The position numbers and the translations under genes are program-made. From the NCBI GenBank assembly GCA_965365795.1, contig CBDUDB010000002.1, positions 1 through 45,266 on the forward strand: a stretch of 45,266 bases of DNA, read 5' to 3'. The stretch comes from an uncultured bacterium (GTDB lineage Bacteria; Krumholzibacteriota; Krumholzibacteriia; LZORAL124-64-63). Below the pieces are notes generated by a model that made no database searches, was not told the DNA's origin, and worked only from the letters and a program-made list of their open reading frames with translations. Of the stretch, positions 3,695 through 40,431 are shown piece after piece (positions within the stretch are counted from its first letter, which is position 1; each line of letters begins with the position of its first letter).

Positions 3695-5485
3695 CTAAGC
3701 GTCCGGCGAATTTCTGGGAAGCGGTAATATAAAAGAAAATACCGCCCCGCCCTGAGGTTGGTTGGCCGCCTCGATGACCCCCCCGTGGGACTTGATAATC
3801 TGGGCACAGATGGTCAGGCCCAGGCCAGAACCCGTCGTTTTCGTCGAGAAAAACGGCGAAAAAAGCTGCCCCGAATCTTCCTTTGCAAAACCCGGGCCGT
3901 CATCCCTGACCTCCACCTTGACTCCTCCCTCCACCAGGCGGGAAACCACCTGGATCCGGCCTCCGTCGGGCTGGGCCTGCATGGCGTTGACCAGGAAATT
4001 CTGAATGATCTGCTGGATCTCCCCCGGATGCAGGTCCAGGGCCAGACCATCGGACTTCAGATCCATCTCCAGCCGGATACCCTTGCCCGCCAGTTCGGCC
4101 TGGAATCGGTCGGCCGATTCGGCCACGATCCGGTCCACCACCACTTCCTTGCGGAGTTGTTTCTTGGGTCGAATGAAATCCAGCAGGTCATGAATGATGG
4201 TCTCCATGCGGGCCACCTCGCTGGAAATGATGTCCGCGAATTGCCGGTTGGGATCCTCTTCCTGCAAATTGCGCATGAGGGTGCGTGCAAATCCCCCGAT
4301 GGCAACCAGCGGATTACGTAATTCGTGGGCCACGATGGCGGAGGTTTCGCCCATGACGCTCAGGCGCTCCATGCGCATCAGCGTTTGCTGATCGTCCTTC
4401 TGTTTCTGGTGGGCCTTGTGCAGGTCGATCAGCCGTTGCTGCAACTCGTGGTAAAGCCGGCTGTTTTCGATGGCGCCGGCGCTCTGGTTGGCGAACATCT
4501 GCAGAAATTCCAGGTCCAGATCGGTGACCTCGGCCCCGCTGATGGCATTGTCGGCCACGATGACCCCGATGTAGCCCGCGCGGGTGGCCATGGGTGCCAC
4601 GGCGAACTGGGGGCAGCCGAGCCAGGCGCGCACCGACTCCACTCCCGGCATGACCGTTTCCTCGGTGACCCGCAGGACCTGACGGTCATCCATCACCCGA
4701 ATCAGGAGGTGTTCGGTGTCCGCCAACGGAACAATCATCCGCTCCACGATTTCATTGACGGCCACATCGGTCTGCTTGATGGACTGGTCGTAACTGGTCA
4801 TCATCTCGAAAAGGTCGCTGGGCTGATCGGCTAGATCCTGCCAGATCCGCGAGGCCTCGTCGGCGTTGCTCGGCCCGATGGCAATCACACCCTTGAGGAC
4901 CTCCTTGGCCTCATCGACCAGCAGCAGAAAGGCCCGGTTGAACCGCAGCCCCTGGCCCGCGGTCATGCAGATGAGTACAGCTTCGAGGATCTGGTCGAGG
5001 GAAAGATGGGCTCCGTAGAGAGCTTCACTCACCTGGTTCAGCAAGGAGAGTTTGGCCAGACGGGCGGCCCGCAATTCATCTTCATGGGTCCGCTTGCGGA
5101 TATCCGCCAGAAGCAGGAGGCAATGGTTGGGTTCCTGGGTTTCCTCGCCGGTTTCGTCCTCAACGTAGTGCGCCACGAAGGGGGAGCATTGGACCTCGAC
5201 CGGGATCACCAGCCCACTTGTGTGCCGCACCTGAAGCTGACGCAGCATACTGGACCGACAACGCTGTTCGGATTTGCACAGGCTGACGCTCGACGGCGGG
5301 ACAAACCAGTTCTCCAGCGCCTCGCCCACCAGTTCGATGCAATCCTTGCCCAGCAGAATTCCCGCGCCCTTGCTGGCCACCGCGATATCTCCGCCGGGAT
5401 TGACCACCAGCATGGGTGATTCGGCGGCTTCGAAACCCGCCGAAGCGAGATCCGCCCGGCGCCGGAGGAATCCTCGGTGATCCAC
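3695..5485 (-). CDS. Soluble sensor histidine kinase (PAS - GAF - HisKA - HATPase_c)
   Basis: H-box IVAHELRNPL. N/G boxes QNFLVNAMQA, DDGPGF, GSGLGL. A GAF-like central region. No hydrophobic TM segment. GTG start at 5485 is preceded by AGGAG. Confidence 0.85.
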   Translation of the reverse strand: MDHRGFLRRRADLASAGFEAAESPMLVVNPGGDIAVASKGAGILLGKDCIELVGEALENWFVPPSSVSLCKSEQRCRSSMLRQLQVRHTSGLVIPVEVQCSPFVAHYVEDETGEETQEPNHCLLLLADIRKRTHEDELRAARLAKLSLLNQVSEALYGAHLSLDQILEAVLICMTAGQGLRFNRAFLLLVDEAKEVLKGVIAIGPSNADEASRIWQDLADQPSDLFEMMTSYDQSIKQTDVAVNEIVERMIVPLADTEHLLIRVMDDRQVLRVTEETVMPGVESVRAWLGCPQFAVAPMATRAGYIGVIVADNAISGAEVTDLDLEFLQMFANQSAGAIENSRLYHELQQRLIDLHKAHQKQKDDQQTLMRMERLSVMGETSAIVAHELRNPLVAIGGFARTLMRNLQEEDPNRQFADIISSEVARMETIIHDLLDFIRPKKQLRKEVVVDRIVAESADRFQAELAGKGIRLEMDLKSDGLALDLHPGEIQQIIQNFLVNAMQAQPDGGRIQVVSRLVEGGVKVEVRDDGPGFAKEDSGQLFSPFFSTKTTGSGLGLTICAQIIKSHGGVIEAANQPQGGAVFSFILPLPRNSPDA

Positions 5486-5512
5486 TTCACACTCCTATCA
5501 AGATGGCCTCGT

Positions 5513-6982
5513 TCAAACCGGGCCTGCACGGCGCACCGCACGGTAAAGTTTTTCGTACTTGGCCGCCGACCTGGACCAGCCGAAATCGCATTTCATCCCC
5601 CGCGCCTGCAGACGGCGCCAGGCCGGCTGGTTTTCCCACAGGGTTTCGGCCCGGCGCAGGGCGGCCATGAGATCCTCGCTGGTGGCCTCATCAAAGACGA
5701 CCCCGTTGCCGTTGCGGCGCACGGCGTCGATGACGGTGTCGGCCAGGCCGCCGGTCTTCCTGACCACCGGCAAGGTACCGTAGCGCAGGGCATAAATCTG
5801 GGACAGGCCACAGGGCTCGAACACACTGGGCATGAGGAACAGATCGCTGCCGGCGTAGATGCGATGGGCCAGGGATTCGTCGAAGGCCCCGATAAAAGCC
5901 ACCTTGTCCGGGTGCCGGGTCGCAGCCTTGGCGGCCGCCGCTTCCAGCGTCTTGTCCCCGGTGCCCAGCAACGCGAAGGTGAAACCGTCTTCAGCCAAAC
6001 GGCCCAGCAAAGGCAGGACCAGGTCCAGCCCTTTCTGGGGAACCAACCGGCCCACGAACCCGCACAACGGTTTGCCGTCTTCCGGCTTCAGACCCAGCTC
6101 TTTCATGAGTTCTGACCGACAGGTCTGTTTGCCCGACAGGTCGGCAGGGCCGAAGGACGCCGGCAAGGCCGGATCCTTCAAAGGATCCCAGGTGGTGTAA
6201 TCGGTCCCGTTCAGGATGCCCGAATAGGAATCGCCCCGACCACCCAGAATCCCTTCCAGCCCACAGCCAAAGACCGGATCCTCGGTGGTTTCGACGGCAT
6301 AGGTCGGGCTGACCGTGTTAACCCTGTCCGCGGCCAGGATTCCCGCTTTCAGGAGATTGATGTGGCCGTGGAACTCCAGCAGCCCCGGATAGGAAGCCAT
6401 GGAGCGCGGCAATCCCAGCGTGTCGATTCCCTCAACCGGATGCACGTCCTGATGGGCCAGGTTGTGGATGGTCAGCAGACTTCCGGCCGGTCCAGGCACG
6501 CCGCGGCCGGCATACCAATGGCGCCGGTACAGAAGGGCCGGCGCCGCCTCGGCGTCGTGGGCATGGATCACGTCCACGGGCCAATCCAGCAGACGGGGTA
6601 ACATCAGCGCGGCCTGTCCGTGCATCGCCGCCCGAGCCAGGGAGTCGGAAAAAACTTCTCCCTGATCGTCGACATAGATACCTTCCCGCCCGAACAGCGA
6701 GGGGCACTCGACCAGGTAGATTTTCACCTTGGCCCTGGGTGATCCCAGCATATGGAAACGAACGTCGTGCATTTCCTGCCCCACGCGCATCACCAATGGC
6801 GGCAGTTTTTTCACCGGGCTGATTTTTTCCACCTTGCGGTTCAGATGACCGTACAAGGGCATCACCACCCGGACATCGTGTTTGCGGGCAGCCATGGCCC
6901 CGGCCAAAGAGGTGACCACGTCAGCCAGCCCTCCGACCTTGGCGAAAGGCGCCATCTCCGCGCTGATCATCAGGATGTTCAC
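5513..6982 (-). CDS. glgA: Glycogen synthase (ADP-glucose type, GT5)
   Basis: N-terminal ILMISAEMAPFAKVGGLADVV signature and C-terminal LMPSVFEPCGLSQIYALRYGTLPVV. I prefer GTG at 6982 (GGGAGGGA just upstream, 1 nt after the galT stop) over the listed ATG at 7018. Confidence 0.9.
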   Translation of the reverse strand: MNILMISAEMAPFAKVGGLADVVTSLAGAMAARKHDVRVVMPLYGHLNRKVEKISPVKKLPPLVMRVGQEMHDVRFHMLGSPRAKVKIYLVECPSLFGREGIYVDDQGEVFSDSLARAAMHGQAALMLPRLLDWPVDVIHAHDAEAAPALLYRRHWYAGRGVPGPAGSLLTIHNLAHQDVHPVEGIDTLGLPRSMASYPGLLEFHGHINLLKAGILAADRVNTVSPTYAVETTEDPVFGCGLEGILGGRGDSYSGILNGTDYTTWDPLKDPALPASFGPADLSGKQTCRSELMKELGLKPEDGKPLCGFVGRLVPQKGLDLVLPLLGRLAEDGFTFALLGTGDKTLEAAAAKAATRHPDKVAFIGAFDESLAHRIYAGSDLFLMPSVFEPCGLSQIYALRYGTLPVVRKTGGLADTVIDAVRRNGNGVVFDEATSEDLMAALRRAETLWENQPAWRRLQARGMKCDFGWSRSAAKYEKLYRAVRRAGPV

Positions 6983-6983
6983 T

Positions 6984-8057
6984 TCAGGATCCCTCCCCGC
7001 GCAACCGCTGCGCCGCATCTTCGGGTATCACCGAATTGATGGTGAATCCCGTTCCCACCTCGAGGCCGGCCGGCCGGCTCAGCCGGGGCATGATTTCCAG
7101 GTGCCAATGAAAACTATCGCGAACCGAGTATGCCAGATCATCCAGCCTTTCGTCACCGTACAACTCGCCGCTAACCGGAGCCAAGGGCGCACTGTGGATG
7201 ACCAGGTTCAAGGAGGGATCGCCGTGAATAGCGTTCAACCGACGCAGGGAAAAGGCCAGCACCGGGGCCAGGGCGGCCAGATCCTCATCGTCAGCCTGGA
7301 CCAAATCGGCCTGGTGCCTGGTCGGAACCAGGAGCATCTCCCAGGGAAAGCGGCTGGCCCAGGGAGTCAGGCACAACCAACGATCGTTGCCGCGAACCAC
7401 CCTGCCGCCGGATTTTTTTTCGGCCGCCGCCAGGTCGCATAAAAGACATCGGCCGGTGCGGTCGCGGTATTGGGCGAACCGGACCGCTTTGTCCACCACA
7501 ATCGGCGGCAGTTCGGGCGTGCCGATGATCTGCATGTGAGGATGAGCCAGGGTGGCCCCCGCCTCGGGGCCGTGATTGCAGAAGGGCGAAACATACCTGT
7601 GCCCCGGCCGCCGGGAAAAAACTTCCGCCCGGTCCCGCAATACCTGGAGCAGTTCGAGCAACCGCGATTCATCGAGGGAAGCCAGACCATCGGCATGGTT
7701 TGGTGAATAGACGATTACCTCGTGGGATCCGACTCCAGGCCTTTCGGGAAAAAGGCCCGTGGATGTCCCGGAGGGCCGGACCTCGAGAGTGGACGCATCG
7801 ACTTCCGGCCGCAGGGCGGGATACATGTTGGGAAAAACCCTCAAACGCCACCCGGGCCCGTTGGGAGCTGCACCAGATTCCCGGCCGAGGGCCAGGATTT
7901 CCCCGGTGGTGCTGGATTCGTGGCCGGGACAGAAGGGACAGTGCGCCCCCGGGGCCAGGTCCCTCTGCATGAGGCGAAATTCATTGGGGCGGCCGCTGCG
8001 GCCGGCTGCCATGATCACCCAGCGACCCGTCAATGGATCCTGACGAAGCGTCGACAT
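6984..8057 (-). CDS. galT: Galactose-1-phosphate uridylyltransferase-family (HIT superfamily) nucleotidyltransferase
   Basis: Zinc knuckle CPFCPGHE and the active-site HPHMQI (HxHxQ) motif. Tandem half-barrel organisation. First gene of the glycogen operon. The true substrate could be ADP-glucose rather than UDP-hexose. Confidence 0.8.
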   Translation of the reverse strand: MSTLRQDPLTGRWVIMAAGRSGRPNEFRLMQRDLAPGAHCPFCPGHESSTTGEILALGRESGAAPNGPGWRLRVFPNMYPALRPEVDASTLEVRPSGTSTGLFPERPGVGSHEVIVYSPNHADGLASLDESRLLELLQVLRDRAEVFSRRPGHRYVSPFCNHGPEAGATLAHPHMQIIGTPELPPIVVDKAVRFAQYRDRTGRCLLCDLAAAEKKSGGRVVRGNDRWLCLTPWASRFPWEMLLVPTRHQADLVQADDEDLAALAPVLAFSLRRLNAIHGDPSLNLVIHSAPLAPVSGELYGDERLDDLAYSVRDSFHWHLEIMPRLSRPAGLEVGTGFTINSVIPEDAAQRLRGEGS

Positions 8058-8074
8058 TTATGTGGGGCCCTTCC

Positions 8075-8096
8075 AAAAAAAACCGAGTTCACTCGG
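8075..8096 (-). terminator. Short hairpin plus U8 tract on the minus strand, 18 nt upstream of the galT ATG
   Basis: The minus strand reads CCGAG-UGAA-CUCGG followed by UUUUUUUU. The stem is only 5 bp. Confidence 0.35.
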
Positions 8097-8217
8097 AACT
8101 TATTCCTTCCCTGATGCGTAGAATACATTGTGACGGAGATAATACCAACCGCTTCCCCCCAATTCAGCGGCACCTCCTCCGGTCACGGCGAACATTGACG
8201 AGGCGAGACGAGAAAGG

Positions 8218-8254
8218 GAACGGACCCCAGGGCGAAGGGTCCGTTCTTTTTTTT
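8218..8254 (+). terminator. Strong hairpin with T8 tract in plus orientation (possibly a bidirectional terminator for the deacetylase operon)
   Basis: GAACGGACCC-(9 nt loop)-GGGTCCGTTC followed by TTTTTTTT on the plus strand. On the minus strand the same stem is preceded by A8 and followed by CCTTTCTCGTCTCG. Confidence 0.5.
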
Positions 8255-8284
8255 GTCCGGGACTCGATGGTGGTTTAAGATGGT

Positions 8285-9178
8285 TTATGTGGCCCCAAGG
8301 GCCAATCGCGGCAGACCGCCCCCCTCTTCCAAACGGTCCACATACTGACTCAAGGTCTCGAAATCCCCCATTTCCAGGATCTTGGCCAACTTCTTGGGCA
8401 TCGTGGCCTGCCCCCCCTGGCTGCGCCAGCTGGTCATCGCCGATTGCCCCGCCTGGGGCCGGAAATCATCCATTTCCCAGGGGTGGGTGTAAACCAGGCA
8501 GCCGACTCCCTGGCGCCGCGCACTGGCGCGAAGGGCCTTAAAAACCGTCCAGGGCATCAGTCGCAGATACCCCCCTCCGGAGAACGGCACATTGACCCCG
8601 AGAAACCGCCAGGTCGGCATGGGCACGACCGTAAAGGGCGGGCCGTCGCCTTCCAGCCTGAAGGGACGGCGGGGCGAATCCGGCTGGCCATAGCGGGGAT
8701 GGTGGATGGGGAAGATGGAACAATCGTAACGGAACCCGCAGTCACGCAGGATATCCAGATACCCGTGCACCGACGGGGTGATGCTGAAACTCGGCGCCCG
8801 GTAACCGGCGGGCGAGGTCACGCCGGCGGTGGCCAGCGCTTCGAGGGCCCGGTCGCAGTCGGCGCGGAACTGGTCGGGCGTCAGTTTGAAGATCTCCGGG
8901 TGGGCGTAGCTGTGACAGCCCACCTCGTGGCCGTGGCGCACGATCTCGCGCACCACATCGGGATGCCGCTCGGCCGTCCACCCCAGAACAAAAAAAGTTC
9001 CTTTCACACCGTGTGCATCCAGCAGATCCAGACACCGGGCCATGCCCTTTTCGACCCGCTGCTCCTGGTCGTCCCAGACCTCGGGCGGAACCCGATCGAG
9101 ATAGTTGTGTCCGTGGAACCACTCCTCCACATCCACGGTGATGATGTCACGGGGCACGGCGGAAACAGTTGGGACCAT
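8285..9178 (-). CDS. Polysaccharide deacetylase family protein (NodB fold with DUF3473-like C-terminal extension, as in exopolysaccharide / PEP-CTERM-type loci)
   Basis: ITVDVEEWFH, GTFFVLGW..ERHPD and GHEVGCHSYAHP motifs (the Asp and His metal-binding set of NodB deacetylases). Confidence 0.82.
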   Translation of the reverse strand: MVPTVSAVPRDIITVDVEEWFHGHNYLDRVPPEVWDDQEQRVEKGMARCLDLLDAHGVKGTFFVLGWTAERHPDVVREIVRHGHEVGCHSYAHPEIFKLTPDQFRADCDRALEALATAGVTSPAGYRAPSFSITPSVHGYLDILRDCGFRYDCSIFPIHHPRYGQPDSPRRPFRLEGDGPPFTVVPMPTWRFLGVNVPFSGGGYLRLMPWTVFKALRASARRQGVGCLVYTHPWEMDDFRPQAGQSAMTSWRSQGGQATMPKKLAKILEMGDFETLSQYVDRLEEGGGLPRLALGAT

Positions 9179-9181
9179 CGA

Positions 9182-9871
9182 TCACTCCCCCGGCCGCCCG
9201 GCCCGGGCCAGGCAAGCGAATTGAAGGTATTGCATGTCGGACCATCGGCGGAAGGTCAGTAGGTTGACCAGACGGAACTTCAGTGAGCCCGTCGGATTGA
9301 TGCCTGCCATGGTTTCGACGGTGAATCCGCATTCGTCCATCAGGCGGATCATGCTCGACCGGGTGAAAAACCGAAGATGGGTGCGGTCGAGAATTCCCTC
9401 GTCAGTGTAGTCCCAGCGTCCGTGGACGGCCAGATCGACCACATTGAAAAAATACCGCACGTTGGGAAGGGAGGCGACCAGGAAGCCGCCGGGTTTCAAC
9501 AGCGGCCGCAGGGAACCGATCAGAGACACGGGGTCAACAACGTGTTCGATCACGTCGTTCAAAACCAGGCAGTCGAAGTGACCGGCCGGCAGATCGGAAC
9601 AGACTTTCGCGACATCTCCCTGCAGAACCCGGTCCAGAACCGCGGCGGCCTTGGCTGCGGCAACCGGGTCCATCTCCACCCCCCACACTTCGACGGGCGA
9701 CCCCACCTGGGCCCGCGTCTTCTTGAGATGGTCCGCAAAAGCGCCTTCTCCACACCCCACCTCCAGGAAAACGGTGGCCTCGGCGGGGATGAAGTCGAGC
9801 ATCTCGTGCCGCTGGTTTCGGAAATATTCAGACAGTGCGGTCTCCCTCAGCAGGATCTTTTCCGGGCACAA
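9182..9871 (-). CDS. Class I SAM-dependent methyltransferase
   Basis: Motif I VFLEVGCGEGAF and post-I/II CLVLNDVIEHV. 3 nt upstream of the deacetylase gene. TTG start at 9871, with an alternative ATG 69 nt downstream. Confidence 0.78.
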   Translation of the reverse strand: MCPEKILLRETALSEYFRNQRHEMLDFIPAEATVFLEVGCGEGAFADHLKKTRAQVGSPVEVWGVEMDPVAAAKAAAVLDRVLQGDVAKVCSDLPAGHFDCLVLNDVIEHVVDPVSLIGSLRPLLKPGGFLVASLPNVRYFFNVVDLAVHGRWDYTDEGILDRTHLRFFTRSSMIRLMDECGFTVETMAGINPTGSLKFRLVNLLTFRRWSDMQYLQFACLARAGRPGE

Positions 9872-9913
9872 TGAGGTCCCGCGATTCCCAACCCAACAAC
9901 TTCATGGCAACCA

Positions 9914-11995
9914 TTAGACCATATCCTGAATTCTCCTCAGATCCGACGGGCTTCCCATGACCAGCATCTGGTCATCATCACCGAATTCAAACTGTCCATC
10001 CGGCACCCGCCCGACAATTTCGGCTCCCCCGTCCCGCTTTTGCTTGACCAGCAGCACCGTAACTCCGTAGCTGTTGCGCAGATCCAATCCCGCACAATTG
10101 CGCCCCAGGAAGGCCGCGGGAACCGGGATTTCAGCTAAACTCAGGCCCGACACCCCCGGCATGGGGGTGAAACGCCCGACATCTTCCATGGATGTAACCA
10201 TACTCGAGGCCGTCTCGCGCTTGAACATTTCGTTGTTGTACTGCTGGATGACATCCTGCACCTGGATCGCGCCAACCAGAATGCCTTCGGCGACCACGGG
10301 AACCTCGTATTGATAAAGGCCCAATTGACGAATGACTTTGTCCAACTGGTCTTCCGGTCTAACCACAGGGAAACCCTTGGATTGCATAATGTCATAAGCC
10401 ATGATGGCCTGCCCGGCCTGGTGGGTCATCCCGAGGTAGGGCCGCAAATCATCGAAATTGACAACCCCCTCCAACCTGTCCCCGGCTCCAATGACAAAAA
10501 TAGAGTTGTGTCGGTTGGTCATGAACAGGGAAAGCAATTCGAACAGATTCGCCTCTGAACTTACCTTGCCCTCGGGTTCACACATCACTTCGCTGGCCTG
10601 CAGGTGACTCAGCACATTCAAGCTGCGACCTTTGTAGAGATCCAACCCGCGGCGCAACAACTTCTTGGTGTAGATGGAGGCGCTTGTGATCCTCGAGGCC
10701 AGCATGGTGGCAATCACACACGAGATCATTAGTGGCAGGATGATTTTGTAGTCGCCCGTCAACTCGAAAATGATCATGAAGGCCGTCAAGGGCGCATGGG
10801 TCGTCGCTGCGACCACCGCACCAGCTCCCACAAGAGCGTAGGCACCCGAAGAGGCGGTAGCGGAAGGCCAGATGTTGTGAACCACCGTACCCAGTCCACC
10901 CCCGGTCATGGCTCCTATCATTAGCGATGGAGCAAAAATCCCTCCTGAGCCTCCCGACCCTATCGTGATGGCGACAGCCACGATCTTGACCAAGGCCAGC
11001 AGAAGCAAGGTCTGCAGTACAAGGTCTTCGTGCAGGGCCATCTCTATGGCCTCGTACCCTACCCCCATGATTTCCGGAAAACGCAGCGCCATCAAACCGA
11101 TCAGGAGGCCCCCGATGACCGTTTGCACGACACTTGGGATCCTGGCCAGGGGGCCCTCGAAAAAATCCTCCGCGGCATACAGGACCTTGACGAACAACAG
11201 CCCCACCAGACCGGCGATAACCCCAAGCAACCCGTAGAGGCCCAATTCCCATGAACTGACCAGGGAGTATTTAGGGATCAAAAAGGCAGGCAGATCCGCA
11301 AAGAAATGGTGACTGACCACCGTTGCTGCCACCGAAGAGATCACAATGGGGGTCAGCTGGGACGGGGCGAAGTCCCCCAGAATCACTTCGGCGGAAAACA
11401 GGACCCCGGCGATGGGCGCATTGAAGGTGGCGGCAATGCCTGCTGCCGCGCCACATCCCACCAGGGTACGAAGACGGCGCTCTCCCAGATGCATCAACTG
11501 CCCGATGGCTGAGCCAAGGGCCGACCCGATCTGCACAATGGGGCCCTCACGCCCCACCGAGCCTCCGGTTCCAATGCAAATACCGGAAGCGACCATTTTC
11601 GCCAGCACAACCCGCGCCCTTATCCGCCCCCCGCGCAGCATGACAGCTTCCATTACCTCCGGGACCCCGTGTCCCTTGGCTTCCCGTGCGAAAAAGTGGA
11701 TGATTATACCTACGAGAAGACCGCCGGCAGCCGGAATGAGAATCAATTGCCAGGGAGGATGGCTGCGAAGACCGTCCAGGGTAAAAGCCGGCATCTGCCA
11801 GGCCTGGACCTGCACCAATTGAATGAATTTTCGAAATCCGACCGCACAGAGACCGCCCAAAAGTCCCACCAAAACGGCCAAGAGGACCATCAAAGTGTGA
11901 TAGGACTCCAGAAATCGGAATCGGATACGACTTGTATTCAGCAGCTGGTTAATATTCATGGGGGGAATATCCGGAACGGGACGGCGGAATGCCAT
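9914..11995 (-). CDS. ClC-family chloride channel / H+-Cl- antiporter with C-terminal CBS pair and RCK_C (TrkA_C)-like domain
   Basis: Selectivity-filter motifs GSVGREGP and GGSGGIFAPS. About 10 or more hydrophobic helices. The C-terminal tail is CBS-like, then ...GVTVLLVKQKRDGGAEIV...GDDDQMLVMG. Start trimmed to ATG 11995 (AAGGAAA upstream). Confidence 0.88.
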   Translation of the reverse strand: MAFRRPVPDIPPMNINQLLNTSRIRFRFLESYHTLMVLLAVLVGLLGGLCAVGFRKFIQLVQVQAWQMPAFTLDGLRSHPPWQLILIPAAGGLLVGIIIHFFAREAKGHGVPEVMEAVMLRGGRIRARVVLAKMVASGICIGTGGSVGREGPIVQIGSALGSAIGQLMHLGERRLRTLVGCGAAAGIAATFNAPIAGVLFSAEVILGDFAPSQLTPIVISSVAATVVSHHFFADLPAFLIPKYSLVSSWELGLYGLLGVIAGLVGLLFVKVLYAAEDFFEGPLARIPSVVQTVIGGLLIGLMALRFPEIMGVGYEAIEMALHEDLVLQTLLLLALVKIVAVAITIGSGGSGGIFAPSLMIGAMTGGGLGTVVHNIWPSATASSGAYALVGAGAVVAATTHAPLTAFMIIFELTGDYKIILPLMISCVIATMLASRITSASIYTKKLLRRGLDLYKGRSLNVLSHLQASEVMCEPEGKVSSEANLFELLSLFMTNRHNSIFVIGAGDRLEGVVNFDDLRPYLGMTHQAGQAIMAYDIMQSKGFPVVRPEDQLDKVIRQLGLYQYEVPVVAEGILVGAIQVQDVIQQYNNEMFKRETASSMVTSMEDVGRFTPMPGVSGLSLAEIPVPAAFLGRNCAGLDLRNSYGVTVLLVKQKRDGGAEIVGRVPDGQFEFGDDDQMLVMGSPSDLRRIQDMV

Positions 11996-33839: not shown

Positions 33840-35951
33840 ATGACGACGAAGGTGATGCCCACACCTCAACTCGATACCGGAACTCCTGAAACCAAACGGG
33901 ACGAAATCCGCCGTTACTTCCAGACCACGTGGGACCTCTACGACAACCTGTTCGCGGTCATGGCCAATGACGAGGCCTACCTCACCCAGGCGGACCCCTT
34001 GCGGCATCCGTTGATTTTCTACCTCGGTCACACCGCCGTGTTCTTCATCAACAAGCTGAATCTGGCCAAGATCATTTCCAAACGGGTCAATCCCCGCCTC
34101 GAATCGATCTTCGCCATCGGGGTGGACGAGATGAGCTGGGACGACCTGGACGACCAGAACTACGACTGGCCGGCAGTCGCCGAGGTCTGGACCTTCCGCA
34201 ACCAGGTGCGGGCGGTGGTCGAAAAGGTGATCGAAGATCTGCCCCTGACCCTTCCGGTTACCTGGGACGATCCCTTCTGGGTCATTCTGATGGGAATCGA
34301 ACACGAGAGGATCCACCTGGAGACCAGTTCGGTTCTCATGCGGCAGCTGCCCTTGGAAATGGTGACACCCCACCCAAACTGGCCCCTCTGCACGGAAACC
34401 GGACCCGCACCCGCCAATGAACTTTTAGATGTGGCCGGCGGCAAGGTTGCCCTCGGCAAGCCGGCCAACCATGCTCTCTACGGTTGGGACAACGAGTACG
34501 GACACCTTGAAAGAGAAGTGAAATCTTTCCGGGCCTCCCGTTTTCTGGTTTCCAACGGAGAGTTCAAGGAATTCGTAGCCGCGGGAGGTTACCGGAACGA
34601 AAAGTGGTGGTCACCCGAGGGCTGGGCCTGGTGTAACTTCCGCTCGGCGGAACATCCCCTGTTCTGGGTTCCGGCCGGCGAAAATGATTTCCGCTTGCGC
34701 TGTTTCATCGAGGAAATCCCCATGCCCTGGAACTGGCCCGTCGAGGTGAACCAGCTCGAAGCCAAGGCCTTTTGCAACTGGAAAGCTGAAACCGACGGAC
34801 AGGACATCCGGTTGCCGACCGAAGAGGAATGGTACCGCCTGCTGGAGGTATCGGGCATCAAGGACCAGCCGGACTGGGATGCGCCTCCAGGCAACCTCAA
34901 CCTTGCCTTTCACGCCTCCAGCTGCCCGGTTGATCAACATGTAACCGCCGGGTTCGGCGACGTGGTCGGCAACGTCTGGCAATGGACCGAAACTCCGATC
35001 ACGGGCTTTCCCGGTTTCCGGGTTCACCCCCTGTACGACGATTTCTCCACCCCCACTTTCGATGGCCGTCACAACTTGATCAAAGGGGGCTCGTGGATCT
35101 CTACCGGGAACGAGGCCACCCATGACGCCAGGTACGCCTTCCGCCGACATTTTTACCAGCACGCGGGATTCCGGTACATCGAATCCGACCAACAGGTCGA
35201 GATCCGGGAGGACATCTATGAATCCGACGCCCTGGTCTCCCAGTACTGCGAGTTCCATTTCGGCCGGGATTATTTCGGCGTACCCAACTTCATGGTCACC
35301 GCGGCGGAGATCTGCCGGGAATTGACGGCGGGAAAATCCATCCGGCGGGCCCTGGACCTGGGCTGCGCCACCGGCCGGGCCACCTTCGAACTGGCTCGGT
35401 TCTGCGACCACGTCACCGGCATTGATTTTTCGGCGCGGTTCATCCGGGTCGGCCACGACATGCAACAAAAAGGCTTCACCCGTTACGCCATCGCCAAAGA
35501 AGGGGAACTGGTTTCCTACCATGAGCGGACCCTGGCCGATCTCGGCCTGGATGAAGTGCGGGACAAGGTGGAGTTCTGGCAGGGCGACGCCCACAACCTG
35601 AAGGCCCAGTTCACCGATTACGATCTGGTGCTGGCCTGTAACCTGATCGACCGCTTGTACGAACCGGCCCGTTTCCTGGATCACATCACCGACCGAATCA
35701 ATTCCGGAGGTCTGCTGGTTCTTCTGTCGCCCTACACCTGGCTGGAAGAATTCACTCCCAAGGACAAGTGGCTGGGCGGTTTGAAGGTTGACGGGGAAAA
35801 CGTGACTACTCTCGAGGGCTTGCGGTCCAAGCTGGAGCCCCGCTATCGGATGATCGGTGAACCTCGGGACGTGGAATTCGTGATCAGGGAAACAGCGCGG
35901 AAATTTCAGCACACCGCCAGTCAGATGACGGTATGGGAGAAGATTCGGTAG
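33840..35951 (+). CDS. ovoA: 5-histidylcysteine sulfoxide synthase / mercaptohistidine methyltransferase (ovothiol biosynthesis)
   Basis: Three-domain layout. DinB-like N-terminus with iron ligands (LGHTAVFF; IEHERIHLE = HxxxHxE). FGE-sulfatase-like middle (…GNVWQWTE…GGSWIS…). C-terminal SAM methyltransferase (ALDLGCATGRATFELA). 703 aa, matching OvoA size. Confidence 0.87.
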   Translation: MTTKVMPTPQLDTGTPETKRDEIRRYFQTTWDLYDNLFAVMANDEAYLTQADPLRHPLIFYLGHTAVFFINKLNLAKIISKRVNPRLESIFAIGVDEMSWDDLDDQNYDWPAVAEVWTFRNQVRAVVEKVIEDLPLTLPVTWDDPFWVILMGIEHERIHLETSSVLMRQLPLEMVTPHPNWPLCTETGPAPANELLDVAGGKVALGKPANHALYGWDNEYGHLEREVKSFRASRFLVSNGEFKEFVAAGGYRNEKWWSPEGWAWCNFRSAEHPLFWVPAGENDFRLRCFIEEIPMPWNWPVEVNQLEAKAFCNWKAETDGQDIRLPTEEEWYRLLEVSGIKDQPDWDAPPGNLNLAFHASSCPVDQHVTAGFGDVVGNVWQWTETPITGFPGFRVHPLYDDFSTPTFDGRHNLIKGGSWISTGNEATHDARYAFRRHFYQHAGFRYIESDQQVEIREDIYESDALVSQYCEFHFGRDYFGVPNFMVTAAEICRELTAGKSIRRALDLGCATGRATFELARFCDHVTGIDFSARFIRVGHDMQQKGFTRYAIAKEGELVSYHERTLADLGLDEVRDKVEFWQGDAHNLKAQFTDYDLVLACNLIDRLYEPARFLDHITDRINSGGLLVLLSPYTWLEEFTPKDKWLGGLKVDGENVTTLEGLRSKLEPRYRMIGEPRDVEFVIRETARKFQHTASQMTVWEKIR

Positions 35952-35962
35952 TTGCCTCGGTC

Positions 35963-36490
35963 TTATTGTTTCCGGTTCATGGCAGCGCGCCATTTACCGA
36001 ACAGGACGTTCAAGAAGTTGTTGCGCGGCAACCACCGCACAACGGGTGGGCGCCGGGGATCAAGTTCATCGACCGCGCCCTCCATCTCCTGGTCACCGGT
36101 GGCCAATCGGCGTGCTCTTTGGAGGTTCATAAAAGCGGAACCGCGCCGACTACCGAGGAGATTGACCCGGCCAAGCGCATAGTAGGCGATAGCCTCGAAG
36201 GGATTGTTGCGGACCACGTTTTTGGCCAGTTTTTCGGCCGAGACAAACTTCCTTTTCCCTGCCATACAGACCGCGATATGCGCCTGGCATTCCTTGTGGT
36301 CGGGGATCCGCTCCAGCGCCTGACGGAGCAGCTTTTCAGCCTCCGTGTACTGGTCATTTTCGATGAGTCGCTTGGACCTGCGCACCATCTCCGCCGCAAA
36401 TTCCGTGTCAACTTCTCTGGTGGTGGAATAGGTCATCTGGCCGTGGATTTTCTTCCCCGGAACCAAGATGTTGTTCTTCGATTCATACAT
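35963..36490 (-). CDS. Hypothetical protein, helical-repeat (TPR-like) appearance
   Basis: 175 aa from ATG 36490 (GGAGAA upstream). …YTEAEKLLRQALERIPDHKECQAHIAVCM…PFEAIAYYALGRV… suggests TPR-like helices. No family recognised. Confidence 0.45.
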   Translation of the reverse strand: MYESKNNILVPGKKIHGQMTYSTTREVDTEFAAEMVRRSKRLIENDQYTEAEKLLRQALERIPDHKECQAHIAVCMAGKRKFVSAEKLAKNVVRNNPFEAIAYYALGRVNLLGSRRGSAFMNLQRARRLATGDQEMEGAVDELDPRRPPVVRWLPRNNFLNVLFGKWRAAMNRKQ

Positions 36491-36812
36491 TATTTCTCCA
36501 AGCATCACGAAAATCCGCCCAAAAACCCGGCGGGAACCACACCCCACCAAGAGAACCCTGGATTATTTCTATCGACCATATATCCCGGGATTTGAGGATT
36601 TTCTGGGTTTTGGAGTGTCTCCGGTGGTTTCTGGCCTGTTGCCCCCGAAGACCCACTTGTCAAATCACCTAAGTATTTTCTTTGTGGGGATTAATGTGAT
36701 ATCCTTGGGGCGCTGAAGAAAATCGGGAGGGGATTTTCCGTGACCAAAAAAACTAATGCGACTCTGTGGCCAATCCATCGCGACAACCAGACCGATGGCC
36801 ACAGGAGGAACC

Positions 36813-37715
36813 ATGGATCCAGGAAACGGCACCTCCCCCGAATGGGGCCCCTACGAACAGCTGTTCGTAAAATACGACGATAATCAGAAGACCCTATGGT
36901 ACCACCTGGCCCCTCGGTCACGACCTTGTTTCAATTTCGATCTGCTCAACGAATTACGTCGGCTCCAGCACCAGGTGGAACTTCTCAATCACGCTGCCGA
37001 GACGGGCCATGATGCCCTGCCCATCCGCTACACTGTACTGGCCAGTAGCGTTCCCGGGGTTTTTAACCTCGGGGGGGACCTGAACCTCTTTTCCAAATTG
37101 ATCACCGGCGGTGACAGGGAAGGGCTGCTTGGTTATGCCAAAGCATGCATCGATGTCCTTTATCCCAATGCCGTCAACTTTGACATGCCCATGACCACCA
37201 TCACGCTGGTCCAGGGCGACGCTTTGGGTGGGGGGTTCGAGGCCGCCATTTCCAGCAACGTGGTCATTGCCGAAAAAAGCGCCAAGTTCGGACTACCAGA
37301 GGTTCTCTTCAACCTGGTTCCGGGCATGGGCGCCTACAGTTTCCTGGTACGCCGCACCGGACCGGATATTGCCGAAAAGATCATCATGAGTGGAGAGCTT
37401 CTGACCGCCCATAAGATGCACAACCTGGGCCTGGTCGACGAGGTGGTAGAAGACGGCCAGGGTGAACAGGCCGTGGTTCGTTTCATCCAGCGGCACCAGA
37501 AGCGCGGCAATGCCCACAATGCCATGAACAGAATCAGGAAGTGCATCAATCCCGTGACCTATGAAGAGCTGATCCAGATCACCAAGATCTGGGTGGACGC
37601 GGCCTTGAAGTTGACCAGCCGAGACCTGCGCATGATCGAACGTCTCGTCCAGGCCCAGAACCGCCGAGCAGGAGCCCAGAAACCGTCGCTCAAGGCCCTG
37701 GAAGGGCTGGGTTGA
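36813..37715 (+). CDS. rpfF: DSF-synthase-type crotonase (RpfF family enoyl-CoA hydratase/thioesterase)
   Basis: From memory, colinear with Xanthomonas RpfF over nearly the full length. Shared blocks are RPCF…, VLAS..PGVFNLGGDLNLF..LI..GDR..LL.YA, LVQGDALGGGFEAA (first catalytic Glu), GLPEVLFNLVPGMGAYSF (second Glu), ITKIWVDAA and RLVQAQNRR. ATG 36813 follows AGGAGG. Confidence 0.85.
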   Translation: MDPGNGTSPEWGPYEQLFVKYDDNQKTLWYHLAPRSRPCFNFDLLNELRRLQHQVELLNHAAETGHDALPIRYTVLASSVPGVFNLGGDLNLFSKLITGGDREGLLGYAKACIDVLYPNAVNFDMPMTTITLVQGDALGGGFEAAISSNVVIAEKSAKFGLPEVLFNLVPGMGAYSFLVRRTGPDIAEKIIMSGELLTAHKMHNLGLVDEVVEDGQGEQAVVRFIQRHQKRGNAHNAMNRIRKCINPVTYEELIQITKIWVDAALKLTSRDLRMIERLVQAQNRRAGAQKPSLKALEGLG

Positions 37716-37737
37716 CGGTTCTTATTCGTGAGATTAA

Positions 37738-39435
37738 TCAGACGGTAACAGCAGGTTGGATATCCAGGGCCTTGATGGCCTTGACCACTTCGGAAATCCG
37801 CAGGGGTTTGCTGAGGTGCACGTTCATGCCCACGGCAAGGCACTTTTCCGCGTCGGATTTCGTGGCTTCTGCCGTGAGAGCCATAATGGGGATATTCGCC
37901 CGTTCGTCCTTGAGGGCCCGAATGGCTTCGGTACAGGCGTAACCGTTCATGATCGGCATGCGCACATCCATGAATATCAGATCGTATTGATTCTGTTCGA
38001 ACAGGTCCAGGGCTTCAGCCCCGTTTTCGGCCAGATCCACCTTGATCCCGATCCGTTCCAGCATCCCCTTGACAACCACCTGGTTGAACTTGTTGTCCTC
38101 GGCGACCAGGCCCCGCAGACCGAAGTTCGGTATTTCGACCACTTCAGGATCTTCTTTGGCGGCCGGGGCTTTGCACGCGTCCAGGGTCATGGTCACGGTG
38201 AATGCCGACCCCTGGTCCAGCACCGAATCCACCTGGACATCCCCGCCCATCATGATTGCCAGAGTACGGCTGATGGCCAGGCCCAGACCCGTCCCCCCGA
38301 ACTGGCGGGTCGTGGAGTTATCCGCCTGTTCGAACTGGTCGAATATCGCCGCCAGGCGATCGGGAGGAATCCCGATCCCCGTATCCTCGATCCTGACCGA
38401 AACATTTTCCCTGCCCCCGGACCCGGTGACCCGGCAGACCAGCTTCACTTTTCCCTTGTGGGTGAACTTGATGGCATTGCCGACCAGATTGAAAACAACC
38501 TGCCTGATGCGGGTGGGATCACCCATGAAATAGCGGTGTCCGTCTTCCTGGTAGTCGAAGTCAAATTCCAAGCCCTTGGCTTCGGCCGTGGAATTCATCA
38601 GCAGATGAACGTCCCCCAGCACCTGTTTGAGGTCGAAACGGGTGGACTCCAGCTTCAGGCTGTTCGAGGTGATCTTGGAATAGTCCAGGATATCGTTGAT
38701 GATGTGCAGCAGGGATTCCACCGACCGGGTGATGATGTGCAGGTTCTCTTGCTGTTCCTCGTTCAGGTCGGTGGCCTGCAGGGTTTCCGCCATGCCCAGA
38801 ACGCCATTCATGGGCGTGCGGATCTCGTGGCTCATGGTGGCCAGGAACTGATCTTTGGCTTTGTCCGCCAGGCGGGACTTGGCCAGGGCGAGTTCCAGCT
38901 GGGACATGGTCCTCAGACGTCGTAGAACGCTCAGGAAAAACACGGGCAGAACCAGAACGCCCAGCAGCATGCCGGCGCCGATCTCCATATTGCTCTTCCA
39001 GAAATCATTGAACACGAGCAGGGATCCAAAGCCCAGCGCCCCGATCACGATGGCCACCTTCAGGTGCTGTTCGCCGTAACGAATGCCGTTGCCGATGATG
39101 ATCCACAGGAAGACCGGATAGTAGGAGGCCACGTGGGAGTCGCCGAAATGCAGCCAGTAGGTCATGATGCCCAGATCGGCCAAAATGGTCAAGTATCGCC
39201 GTTGCGGCCACTTGCCTGGCAGCCGGAAGACCATGACATACCACGCGACCGCAAACATCAGGTACAACAGGCACACCACCAGGCCTTGCACCAGCTGACC
39301 GTCCATGTCGAGTCCCTTGTGGATCCCGACCGCGCCGAACGCCAGCGTGGCAATGCCGGTGATGACGACCCTGGCCCTGCTCTGGGACAGTTCCTCGTCA
39401 ATCGTGGTCATCCTGGGTTCATGCGAATTGACCAT
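37738..39435 (-). CDS. RpfC-like hybrid sensor histidine kinase (multi-TM input - HisKA - HATPase_c - REC), no HPt domain
   Basis: 5-6 N-terminal TM helices including the RpfC-type YPVFLWIIIGNGIRYG segment. H-box FLATMSHEIRTPMNG. NLVGNAIKFT, DTGIGI, GTGLGLAIS. C-terminal REC (GLVAEDNKFNQ, LIFMDVRMPIMNG, IMALTA, HLSKP). It ends directly after REC. Confidence 0.83.
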   Translation of the reverse strand: MVNSHEPRMTTIDEELSQSRARVVITGIATLAFGAVGIHKGLDMDGQLVQGLVVCLLYLMFAVAWYVMVFRLPGKWPQRRYLTILADLGIMTYWLHFGDSHVASYYPVFLWIIIGNGIRYGEQHLKVAIVIGALGFGSLLVFNDFWKSNMEIGAGMLLGVLVLPVFFLSVLRRLRTMSQLELALAKSRLADKAKDQFLATMSHEIRTPMNGVLGMAETLQATDLNEEQQENLHIITRSVESLLHIINDILDYSKITSNSLKLESTRFDLKQVLGDVHLLMNSTAEAKGLEFDFDYQEDGHRYFMGDPTRIRQVVFNLVGNAIKFTHKGKVKLVCRVTGSGGRENVSVRIEDTGIGIPPDRLAAIFDQFEQADNSTTRQFGGTGLGLAISRTLAIMMGGDVQVDSVLDQGSAFTVTMTLDACKAPAAKEDPEVVEIPNFGLRGLVAEDNKFNQVVVKGMLERIGIKVDLAENGAEALDLFEQNQYDLIFMDVRMPIMNGYACTEAIRALKDERANIPIMALTAEATKSDAEKCLAVGMNVHLSKPLRISEVVKAIKALDIQPAVTV

Positions 39436-39533
39436 CAGCAGCCATTTCGGAAATAGTTTAATACGATGTGCTTGTCCCGGTTATCGGCCACAATTGAGGT
39501 GATTTAACCAAAAAGTGAGAAAATCGCTGGGGG

Positions 39534-39557
39534 CAAAAAATGAGGGGCCCAGCCCCT
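39534..39557 (-). terminator. Intrinsic terminator after the suf operon
   Basis: The minus strand reads AGGGGC-UGG-GCCCCU followed by CAUUUUUUG, about 80 nt downstream of the DUF59 stop. Confidence 0.6.
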
Positions 39558-39638
39558 GTCAGATCACAGCCCATTATCCTGGGTTTTCCACCGGACCCGG
39601 GCTTTAAAGTTTTGCTATGTATTATGAAAATTCAGAAG

Positions 39639-39956
39639 TCAGTCCCAGATACCCAGTTCGGCCCGGACGTCTTCCGAGGCGTCGGTGCGCGGATCCCAGG
39701 GCGGGCTCCAGACCATATCCACCTGGCAGCGCTGAACCCCGGGGACCGTAAGGGCCTTGTTCCGCACCGCGTCCATGATCTGGGGACCCATGGGGCACAT
39801 GGGGCTGGTCAGGGTCAGGCCGATGGTGGCTTCGGCTGTCTCCTCTTCGAAATCCACCCGGCGCACGAGCCCCAGGTCCACGATGTTCAGGTTGAGTTCC
39901 GGGTCGATGACCCGACGCAGGGCCTCGGTGACGTCCATTTCGATCTTGATGCTCAA
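39639..39956 (-). CDS. sufT: DUF59/MIP18-family Fe-S assembly protein (SufT-like)
   Basis: …ALRRVIDPELNLNIVDLGLV…TLTSPMCPMG… is the DUF59 signature. I chose TTG 39956 (GGAGG at 6 nt, just after the sufU stop). The alternative ATG 39938 has no RBS. Confidence 0.72.
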   Translation of the reverse strand: MSIKIEMDVTEALRRVIDPELNLNIVDLGLVRRVDFEEETAEATIGLTLTSPMCPMGPQIMDAVRNKALTVPGVQRCQVDMVWSPPWDPRTDASEDVRAELGIWD

Positions 39957-39957
39957 A

Positions 39958-40431
39958 CTAAACCTCCGTGGTAGCTTCACCCACCGGCCGGCCTTCCCGG
40001 CGGGCGGTGACCGCTTCCAGCATGGTGATCCAGGGCAAAAGGGCACATTTGACACGCACCGGGAACTTGCGCACCCCGGTCAACACTTCAAGGTCACCGG
40101 GATCCAGGTCGTCGGAAAGTTCGACGTCCTTGTGGTGCATGGTCTGCCGAAAGGCCTCGGCCAATTGGGCGGCCTCGGCCAGGGTGCGGCCCAGTAAAAG
40201 TTCCCCGAGTATCGACCCGCTGGCCGTGGCGATAGCGCACCCGGCCGTGCGCACCGAAACAGCGCTGATCTTTTCCCCGTCAAAAGCCAGTTGCAGGGTC
40301 ACTTCATCCCCACAAGAGGGATTTTTTCCCGCGGCTTCGGCGTCCGCGTGCTGAAGGGGTTCACCGCAGCGTGGACTGCGGTGGTGATCCAGAATCACTT
40401 CCCTGTAGAGATCGTCCATGCCGGCATTCAT
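39958..40431 (-). CDS. sufU: SUF-system Fe-S scaffold/sulfurtransferase SufU (NifU N-terminal-like)
   Basis: LYREVILDHHRSPR, NPSCGDE, GCAIATAS and PVRVKCALLPW motifs. ATGA overlap with sufS. Confidence 0.87.
   Translation of the reverse strand: MNAGMDDLYREVILDHHRSPRCGEPLQHADAEAAGKNPSCGDEVTLQLAFDGEKISAVSVRTAGCAIATASGSILGELLLGRTLAEAAQLAEAFRQTMHHKDVELSDDLDPGDLEVLTGVRKFPVRVKCALLPWITMLEAVTARREGRPVGEATTEV

Follow-up and report, generated by a model that had tools for sequence, protein, structure and literature searches.

A putative DSF-type synthase–sensor gene pair, trimmed of HPt domain and partner regulator, in a Krumholzibacteriota genome from marine sediment

A convergent gene pair and its surroundings

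The window – the whole stretch of DNA that was analysed, 45,266 nucleotides from an uncultured member of the Krumholzibacteriota – carries a convergent pair of genes: a crotonase open reading frame at 36756/36813..37715 on the plus strand and a hybrid sensor kinase open reading frame at 37738..39435 on the minus strand. The crotonase start at 36813 is preceded by a Shine-Dalgarno sequence (AGGAGG, 36803-36808) and yields a protein of 300 aa, in agreement with relatives of 301 aa. The two stop codons are separated by a spacer of just 22 bp (37716..37737), in which a consensus scan found no terminator-like hairpin. Both reading frames and their convergent spacing had been put forward in the original prediction, and the coordinates bear them out.

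The pair is flanked by ovoA, a TPR gene and suf genes, and its placement beside ovoA and suf is thus as first described. The TPR gene diverges from the synthase gene, and the intergenic stretch between them (36551..36812; GC 0.47) is the probable promoter region of the synthase; the promoter itself is presumed, a scan of the same stretch for the sigma-70 consensus having given no match. On the far side of the pair a consensus scan picked out a terminator-like hairpin followed by a T-run, 3′ of the last gene of the suf cluster (39543..39557, minus strand). This suggests a separate promoter for the kinase gene, although the hairpin is weak evidence because the count of such sites in the scan is not above shuffled expectation.

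The flanks had also been described as AT-richer. This is correct as far as it goes – GC is 0.47 at 36450-36749 and 0.54 at 39450-39749, against about 0.58 – but the departure is modest, is what ordinary intergenic promoter and terminator DNA would give, and offers no evidence of an island. A genomic island was considered and rejected: the dips in GC are restricted to intergenic DNA, and one family has kept the pair by vertical descent. The TPR gene and ovoA were likewise rejected as parts of the module, their synteny being confined to the closest genera and absent from loci where the pair is arranged in tandem or inverted. Public sequencing runs that hold the region are exclusively of marine-sediment DNA; RNA runs were sought and none was found.

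A putative synthase of the RpfF clade

Evidence as to the nature of the crotonase (36813..37715) came from Pfam, NCBIfam, comparison with structures in the PDB, and a tree. Its Pfam matches (ECH_1, 78.6 bits; ECH_2, 50.1 bits) place it among the crotonases at large, and an ECH_1 match of this kind would equally be expected of an ordinary enoyl-CoA hydratase of beta-oxidation that happens to lie beside an unrelated hybrid kinase. This explanation is effectively refuted, and we assign it next to no probability. Colinearity with Xanthomonas RpfF, as put forward in the original prediction, is borne out by computation: the crotonase matches RpfF of X. campestris (PDB 3m6m) with 200.6 bits and 45% identity (residues 36-288) and Bcam0581 (PDB 5fus) with 187.2 bits, as against 65.6 bits for the best match to a crotonase outside the RpfF group. 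In the tree it falls within an RpfF superclade that is separated with 100% SH-aLRT support from the genome's own three ordinary crotonases. Nor does chance proximity sit well with the distribution of the sensor, which is present in 41/41 other rpfF-positive genomes of the window's GTDB family, mostly on the same contig and adjoining rpfF.

Within the RpfF clade the protein is a member of the wider family and not an orthologue of the xanthomonad enzyme, for it lies above the cut-off of the NCBIfam model PRK08788 (NF006452; 375.3 bits, cut-off 177) and below that of the RpfF equivalog (NF053515; 242.7 bits, cut-off 550). Synthases of the PRK08788 type are numerous, with more than 580 loci found, and the nearest neighbours of the window crotonase among them are uncharacterised proteins. 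These belong to a group of 90 rows in which the tree also places a locus from a Leptospirillum MAG (L044); within this group, culture evidence of DSF-family compounds was found only for the leptospirilli (PMC8357829).

The two motif contexts on which the original prediction drew, GGGFEAA and GLPEVLFNLVPGMGAY, are both present in the translation, and both catalytic glutamates are kept, Glu143 and Glu163 aligning with Glu141 and Glu161 of X. campestris RpfF. Conservation extends beyond the active-site pair: the nine residues named for that enzyme, two catalytic glutamates and seven of the pocket (Glu141, Glu161, Leu136, Gly137, Gly138, Gly85, Met170, Trp258 and Leu276; PMC9864630), all occupy invariant alignment columns, the corresponding residues of the window crotonase being G87, L138, G139, G140, E143, E163, M172, W260 and L278. 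Sequence comparison and phylogeny together place the protein in the RpfF clade. Given its homology and the conserved catalytic residues it would, like RpfF and Bcam0581, dehydrate 3-hydroxyacyl-ACP drawn from fatty-acid synthesis and hydrolyse the thioester, and the predicted product is a diffusible cis-2-enoic acid (a cis-2-unsaturated fatty acid).

An RpfC-type kinase that ends at its receiver domain

The neighbouring gene (37738..39435, minus strand) encodes an RpfC-type hybrid sensor histidine kinase of 565 aa. A membrane input domain (aa 1-185; 38881..39435), recognised by BLASTP, alignment, hydropathy and the helices of an AlphaFold2 model, is followed by HisKA (DHp; aa 193-257; 38665..38859; PF00512, 83 bits), with the H-box MSHEIRTP, by HATPase_c (aa 305-418; 38182..38523; PF02518, 102 bits) and by a C-terminal REC domain (aa 443-555; 37771..38109; PF00072, 89.5 bits), whose acceptor Asp stands in the context LIFMDVRMP. 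The order of HisKA, HATPase and REC is that foreseen in the original prediction, as is the abrupt end of the protein: it stops 10 residues past REC, and Pfam Hpt finds no match in its 565 aa.

The input domain begins with a short stretch containing IDEELSQS, ahead of the membrane helices, which the AlphaFold2 model (mean pLDDT 75.9) places at residues 14-39, 46-71, 79-120, 122-142 and from 150 onward. The segment FLWIIIGNGIRYG, from which a multi-helix sensor of the RpfC type had been proposed, is present within 79-120, and the proposal holds on comparison with a genuine RpfC from another locus (L106), where the RpfF scores 579 bits and passes the curated equivalog cut-off: in BLASTP the window kinase and this RpfC share 28% identity across 162 aa (60.8 bits), and the adjoining RpfH-like part scores 68.2 bits. 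The signature LWxxIGNGxRYG is common to the input domains of the window kinase and RpfC. Five residues are essential for the binding of DSF by RpfC of X. campestris, namely Arg15, Asp17, Ser18, Glu19 and Gln22 (PMC5391125). In the alignment the window kinase keeps the equivalents of Asp17, Glu19 and Gln22, as its own Asp13, Glu15 and Gln18, while Arg15 is replaced by Thr and Ser18 by Glu; with two of the five altered, the ligand may differ from that of RpfC. A further departure from RpfC is an insertion of six residues in the linker ahead of the H-box.

The input domain is by no means peculiar to synthase-linked kinases. It is shared by 828 cluster representatives (E<=1e-10) and occurs also fused to GGDEF, to GGDEF-EAL and in plain kinases; in addition, there are orphan proteins of about 568 aa whose domains match those of the window kinase (RpfC-type input, HisKA, HATPase_c, REC). 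A general membrane module found in such varied fusions need not be specific for a secreted signal, and this, along with the two altered ligand residues, lends something to the view that the pair serves lipid homeostasis and not communication between cells: the crotonase, as an acyl-ACP thioesterase/dehydratase, would tune membrane composition or free fatty acid, with the kinase sensing the membrane or fatty-acid state of the same cell. We consider this quite unlikely. The tight pairing of synthase and receptor, repeated over hundreds of loci, is the pattern of the Xanthomonas and Burkholderia systems, which are proven by experiment, and the RpfF clade stands sharply apart from the metabolic crotonases.

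The pairing itself is readily seen in other bacteria, where a kinase with the same input domain adjoins rpfF in 58/80 rpfF-like loci; convergence, which the original prediction had likened to the layout of the Xanthomonas locus, is the commonest arrangement among those 58. A betaproteobacterial clade has no such kinase; in the two loci checked, a PAS-GGDEF-EAL gene of the RpfR type adjoins rpfF, so that there too the adjoining gene looks like the receptor. Within the family of the window genome most genera have the pair in convergent orientation and three have it in tandem, and in one relative it is inverted as a unit beside suf.

What sets the Krumholzibacteriota kinases apart is the HPt domain. 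Outside the phylum HPt is present on 52/53 of the RpfC-like kinases that stand beside rpfF, and on both kinases of the Xanthomonadales type; it is absent from the window kinase and from 5/5 other Krumholzibacteriota loci, and on the kinase tree this absence is one change. Loss of HPt is a trait of the Krumholzibacteriota clade, arising by a single loss on the tree. Truncation or pseudogenisation of an HPt domain at this locus was rejected, since stop codons 22 bp apart leave no room for it and the relatives all end at the same point: all close relatives, of 557-575 aa, share the three domains, and the stop-to-stop frames of sensor genes across the family are mostly 565-610 aa. From the tree it is further probable that the ancestor of one Krumholzibacteriota family took up the pair from Proteobacteria in a single, old transfer, and that the lineage of that family lost the HPt domain once.

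A predicted output through a stand-alone HPt protein

A central issue is how a signal received by a kinase of this form might leave it. The textbook partner appears to be missing. The genome (351 contigs) holds nine HD-GYP open reading frames and about 50 with REC, and none with both; on these grounds, and within the limits of an assembly that is 91% complete, an RpfG encoded elsewhere in the genome was rejected. As the original prediction held, no RpfG- or RpfR-like gene adjoins the pair in the window, the flanks being ovoA, the TPR gene and suf, and in the five relatives with enough flanking sequence a custom profile found no HD-GYP within about 7 kb. A linked regulator in relatives was rejected as well: the neighbours of the kinase gene there (UDP-glucose pyrophosphorylase, methyltransferase, YceI, MarR, suf) are housekeeping genes, and only one locus (L109) has a REC gene on its own, some 900 bp upstream of rpfF, which is not conserved.

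A candidate for the next step is encoded on contig C182. Across the whole genome Pfam Hpt has one match, a stand-alone protein of 131 aa with the motif HSFKG; a custom HPt profile adds one weak match, within a different hybrid kinase that is itself partial. In the family, 36/41 rpfF-positive genomes have a strong orthologue of the stand-alone HPt, as against 5/20 rpfF-negative ones (Fisher p=2e-6, uncorrected for phylogeny). A sister genus has three genomes in which 1.3-3.6 kb separate the HPt gene from the kinase gene; where HPt gene and pair are near, a gene on the opposite strand stands between them. Four genomes of the tandem type give weak matches only. Several other hybrid kinases of the genome end in REC, so that the stand-alone HPt is not dedicated to the window kinase.

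The co-occurrence of HPt and pair could reflect shared ancestry.

The relay could, in principle, stop at the kinase. On this alternative the synthase and sensor are as described and the kinase's own REC is the terminus – a phosphate sink, a switch that binds and releases the synthase and so controls autoinduction, or a domain with some other direct target – with neither HPt nor regulator. In its favour, the relatives examined in detail show no consistent linkage of a regulator or HPt gene to the pair, and four tandem-type genomes match the stand-alone HPt only weakly; yet a sensor that fed back solely on its own synthase would give the cell no output, and the HPt orthologue tends to occur where the pair does and in some genomes lies near it. 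Vibrio quorum sensing also speaks against it: in the LuxQ-LuxU-LuxO system LuxQ is a hybrid kinase ending in REC, and it uses a separate small HPt protein. The window kinase is nonetheless far from being a LuxQ: its core (aa 182-555) reaches the end of the NCBIfam LuxQ model at 319 bits, against a cut-off of 1200, and input domain, signal and synthase are unrelated. A precedent within the RpfC type itself, PA1396 of P. aeruginosa, is an HK-REC sensor without HPt reported to signal through a separate, orphan HPt protein (PMC4504480). From Xanthomonas comes a further point for a terminal REC, namely that the REC of RpfC binds RpfF and blocks DSF synthesis (PMC9864630; PDB 3m6m). On balance we regard termination at REC as rather unlikely.

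The reading that we favour, and think probable, is a two-gene module for a signal of the DSF family and its sensor, from which phosphate would leave by way of the stand-alone HPt to an unlinked regulator. The neighbouring kinase would sense the signal through its membrane input domain, prompting autophosphorylation on the HisKA histidine and transfer to its own REC, steps suggested by its domain content and by the biochemistry of RpfC and PA1396. Because the kinase has no HPt domain and no RpfG was found, the phosphate would most likely exit through the 131-aa protein with the HSFKG motif and pass from there to an unlinked response regulator; this one stand-alone HPt of the genome is thus the probable provider, in trans, of the missing phosphotransfer step. 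The REC of the kinase may, by analogy with RpfC, also bind and restrain the synthase.

Comparison with known systems helps to define what is new. In X. campestris, where the operon rpfG-rpfH-rpfC converges on rpfF, the parallels are extensive: an RpfF-clade crotonase with both catalytic glutamates and the pocket residues, the convergent layout, the HisKA-HATPase-REC core, and a homologous multi-helix input domain with the LWxxIGNGxRYG signature and three of the five DSF-binding residues. Set against these are the absence of HPt, the replacement of Arg15 and Ser18, the insertion before the H-box, a synthase score under the RpfF equivalog cut-off, and the lack of adjoining RpfG, RpfH or RpfB and of any REC-HD-GYP found in the genome; moreover, X. 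campestris is a proteobacterium, whereas the window comes from a member of the Krumholzibacteriota of marine sediment. PA1396, compared by its published description, has the same architecture as the window kinase – a five-helix input of the RpfC type, HisKA, HATPase_c and REC (PMC4504480, PMC6536496) – and the window genome likewise possesses a stand-alone HPt. PA1396, however, is unpaired with a synthase gene and detects the signals of other species, whereas the window sensor lies beside its presumed cognate synthase; and PA1396 has an associated response regulator gene, PA1397, where the window pair has no linked regulator. The rpfF-rpfC-rpfG clusters of Leptospirillum, Methylophaga, Thiobacillus and similar bacteria, long listed as DSF loci outside the xanthomonads (PMC4504480), have a synthase of the same large PRK08788-type group but differ in retaining HPt and an adjoining RpfG; in L. 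ferriphilum the HPt is on a separate, adjacent gene, and Leptospirillum cultures show DSF-family activity in bioassay (PMC8357829).

A bolder proposal, which we offer tentatively and hold to be doubtful, is that this family of anoxic marine sediment has reduced a DSF-family signal to synthase and sensor and rewired it, through a shared orphan HPt, into a general phosphorelay in place of RpfG and c-di-GMP. The HPt would then be a hub in the style of LuxQ/LuxU, joining a signal acquired from Proteobacteria with the other hybrid kinases that end in REC; since two of the five ligand-contact residues of RpfC differ, that signal might even be a different cis-2 acid.

As read from its sequence, the locus is a trimmed form of the well-known DSF-type system, synthase beside sensor without HPt domain and partner regulator, its signal chemistry and its output being predictions. 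It implies no new principle, the supply of HPt in trans being already seen in PA1396 and LuxQ. The two genes and the 131-aa HPt do, nonetheless, make a compact set for heterologous study of the products of PRK08788-type synthases and of the ligands of their sensors. If the favoured reading is right, an RpfC-type receptor can work without an HPt domain of its own and without RpfG, and the textbook rpfFCG cluster would understate how modular the pathway is. Most of what is known of DSF signalling comes from Proteobacteria, above all from pathogens of plants and humans; a conserved synthase–sensor pair in an uncultured phylum of sediments would widen both its phylogenetic and its ecological range.

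The synthase and its locus

The two genes occupy exactly the positions assigned to them in the original prediction: a crotonase open reading frame (ORF; 36756 or 36813 to 37715, forward strand) converges on a 565-aa kinase ORF (37738-39435, reverse strand), with 22 bp between the stop codons. AGGAGG lies four bases 5′ of the ATG at 36813 and relatives of the enzyme are 301 aa long, so translation probably yields the 300-aa form. On the crotonase side the pair is flanked by ovoA (33840-35951) and a small TPR gene (35963-36550, reverse strand; 195-aa protein) divergent from the synthase gene; on the kinase side stands the FeS_assembly_P gene (39639-40055, reverse strand), with which the suf cluster begins on that side, with a terminator-like hairpin (39557-39543, reverse strand) between suf and the kinase gene. 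Flanks richer in AT had been claimed; dips in GC are indeed present, but are restricted to intergenic stretches. Among the closest genera the TPR gene is syntenic, but its protein evolves fast: identity there is just 40-44%, against 60-75% for its neighbours. The gene is missing where the pair is tandem or inverted.

Pfam assigns the crotonase to ECH_1/ECH_2. Xcc RpfF (3m6m) is its top PDB match at 200.6 bits, followed by another xanthomonad-type RpfF (7zq7, 199 bits) and by Bcam0581 of Burkholderia (5fus, 187 bits); the next, a non-RpfF crotonase, reaches 65.6 bits. The window enzyme is 45% identical to the xanthomonad RpfFs and 39% identical to Bcam0581. The enzyme passes NCBIfam PRK08788 (375 bits, cut-off 177) and scores under the cut-off of the NCBIfam RpfF equivalog model (243 bits, cut-off 550). 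All nine residues named for Xcc RpfF – catalytic Glu141 and Glu161, with Gly85, Leu136, Gly137, Gly138, Met170, Trp258 and Leu276 (PMC9864630) – are invariant across the crotonase alignment. The phylogeny proposed as a check, a tree of 99 rows including three ordinary crotonases from the window's genome, splits the RpfF-type sequences from those three with 100% support. Within it the window crotonase belongs to a seven-row Krumholzibacteriota clade (99% support), which nests inside a large and predominantly proteobacterial group; Methylophaga and the Leptospirillum MAG locus L044 fall in that group as well, xanthomonad RpfF and Bcam0581 outside it. The prediction of an RpfF-like crotonase retaining both catalytic glutamates is thus borne out, and on grounds of homology we place the enzyme in the RpfF family.

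A sensor with an RpfC-type input domain

Pfam recognizes HisKA (aa 193-257), HATPase_c (aa 305-418) and REC (aa 443-555) in the kinase, and matches nothing in its first 190 residues; it finds no Hpt, in line with the predicted lack of HPt. A genuine RpfC for reference came from a scan of 401 gammaproteobacterial genomes: there a single locus (G386, 579 bits) exceeded the cut-off of the RpfF equivalog model. Its neighbourhood is the textbook rpf layout: a REC-HD-GYP protein (379 aa), a frame comprising an RpfH-like part and RpfC, a convergent rpfF and a 576-aa ORF where rpfB would be. At this locus (L106, 6588-9320, forward strand) the ORF caller joins the RpfH-like membrane protein and RpfC in one 910-aa open frame, which is either a fusion or an RpfC whose start is an internal codon.

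The first 185 residues of the window kinase align with the G386 RpfC at 60.8 bits (28% identity over 162 aa) and with the RpfH-like part of the frame at 68.2 bits. Multiple alignment reveals a signature common to the input domains, LW(V/I)xxGNGxR(Y/F)G; the window kinase has it as FLWIIIGNGIRYG. Five Xcc RpfC residues are required for DSF binding (Arg15, Asp17, Ser18, Glu19 and Gln22; PMC5391125). In their places the window kinase has Thr, Asp, Glu, Glu and Gln, and PMC6536496 describes Glu19 as conserved in every homologue of the RpfC-type input domain. The alignment to RpfC by which the prediction was to be judged therefore yields specific similarity in the transmembrane region, and from score and signature together the kinase can be said to bear an RpfC input domain.

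An AlphaFold2 model (mean pLDDT 75.9) places membrane helices at residues 14-39, 46-71, 79-120, 122-142 and 150 onward, the last continuing into the DHp helix, a predicted arrangement that fits the five helices of RpfC and PA1396. PA1396, a P. aeruginosa sensor which a review of DSF signalling reports to act through an orphan HPt protein (PMC4504480), comprises by its published description five helices, HisKA, HATPase_c and REC (PMC6536496); the architecture of the window kinase is the same, and is therefore already known. The input domain itself (query 38866-39435, reverse strand) matches 828 cluster representatives at E<=1e-10 in a library of 1.84 billion, fused in HK-REC (about 568 aa), HK-REC-HPt, GGDEF alone (about 355 aa), GGDEF-EAL (about 648 aa) and plain kinase arrangements. 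Judged by these fusions it behaves as a general membrane sensor module, one without a name and with no Pfam model matching here.

Distribution of the pair

The named relatives of the kinase are Candidatus Krumholzibacteriota MAGs, and the DNA runs containing the region are marine-sediment metagenomes. The synthase occurs in 42 of 201 genomes sampled from the phylum, all 42 in the window's GTDB family. These come from 12 of 80 sampled genera; in the window's genus every sampled genome has the synthase (8/8, the window's own among them). All 41 other synthase-positive genomes have the sensor, in most beside rpfF on the same contig, the family's sensor frames being mostly 565-610 aa measured stop-to-stop. 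The pair is convergent in most genera, tandem in three (rpfF then rpfC, gaps <200 bp) and, in one relative, inverted as a unit beside suf; the genes around it are housekeeping genes, conserved only in the closest genera. Several family genomes carry a second, orphan sensor paralogue, of which there is none in the window's genome.

A pattern scan across 185,579 species genomes returned >583 rpfF-like loci. The best 80 were kept, and at 58 of them rpfF is adjoined, nearly always convergently, by a kinase whose input domain is homologous. With a custom Hpt profile applied to all of these kinases and Pfam to nine, HPt was found in 52 of 53 non-Krumholzibacteriota kinases and at both Xanthomonadales-type loci, and was missing from the window and all five Krumholzibacteriota loci; on the kinase tree its loss maps as a single change. 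An HD-GYP ORF (355-430 aa), in most cases immediately 5′ of rpfC, is present at 19 loci, from gamma-, beta- and zetaproteobacteria, a Nitrospirae MAG and the two Xanthomonadales-type loci, and at no Krumholzibacteriota or alphaproteobacterial locus among those scanned. In a betaproteobacterial clade without the kinase a MerR-PAS-GGDEF-EAL (RpfR-type) gene adjoins rpfF (2/2 loci checked), so that there too the gene beside rpfF looks like a receptor.

Alphaproteobacterial loci among the 80 (L022-L092) keep the HPt and have no HD-GYP gene beside rpfC; at many of them the kinase measures about 830-930 aa and has roughly 150 additional residues separating HATPase_c from REC. One locus (L017, CAZLUL010000027.1), labelled 'uncultured Fibrobacteraceae bacterium', encodes a synthase 74% and a kinase 62% identical to the window's; both cluster inside the Krumholzibacteriota clade, and the label is probably a taxonomic misassignment.

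Phosphotransfer and output

The window's genome (3.12 Mb, 351 contigs, 91% complete) contains about fifty REC ORFs and, in the genome-wide search that had been recommended, nine HD-GYP ORFs; none of the nine carries a REC domain. Its sole Pfam Hpt match is a stand-alone 131-aa protein (contig C182, 4462-4857; motif HSFKG), and a custom Hpt profile adds one weak match inside another, partial hybrid kinase. Since several other hybrid kinases of the genome likewise end in REC, the C182 protein probably acts as a relay common to several kinases. Its strong orthologues (E<1e-20) are present in 36 of 41 rpfF-positive vs 5 of 20 rpfF-negative family genomes (Fisher p=2e-6, phylogeny ignored). Three genomes of a sister genus carry the HPt gene at a distance of 1.3-3.6 kb from the gene for the kinase; in two, one opposite-strand gene intervenes. 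Co-occurrence and proximity are suggestive of this protein as the relay of the pair.

Elsewhere in the genome, contig C30 (about 4831-11718) encodes in order a REC protein (346 aa), a kinase-like protein with C-terminal HD-GYP (801 aa), a single-REC protein (133 aa), a second kinase-like/HD-GYP protein (870 aa) and a single-REC protein (126 aa). Both large proteins show H-box-like motifs, and a relative (G002) has the two as well, some 18-20 kb away from its rpfF/rpfC pair. If they are indeed histidine kinases fused to HD-GYP, the architecture would be unusual.

Metagenome surveys report rpfF, rpfC and rpfG as widespread in sediments, via orthology labels only and without locus detail (bioRxiv 10.1101/2024.11.15.623595). 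We found no description in the literature of an HPt-less sensor with its own RpfF-family synthase and no linked regulator, forming a two-gene unit that is conserved in a candidate phylum outside the Proteobacteria. Overall our data support, with corrections, the reading of the pair as a DSF-type synthase and sensor. What they establish directly is homology, residue conservation, architecture, linkage and distribution, whereas product, ligand binding, relay and output are inferred. The most likely mechanism, and one we consider probable, is that the crotonase would make a DSF-family signal, that the cognate RpfC-type kinase would bind and sense it, and that phosphotransfer toward a putative output would go through an HPt protein encoded elsewhere.
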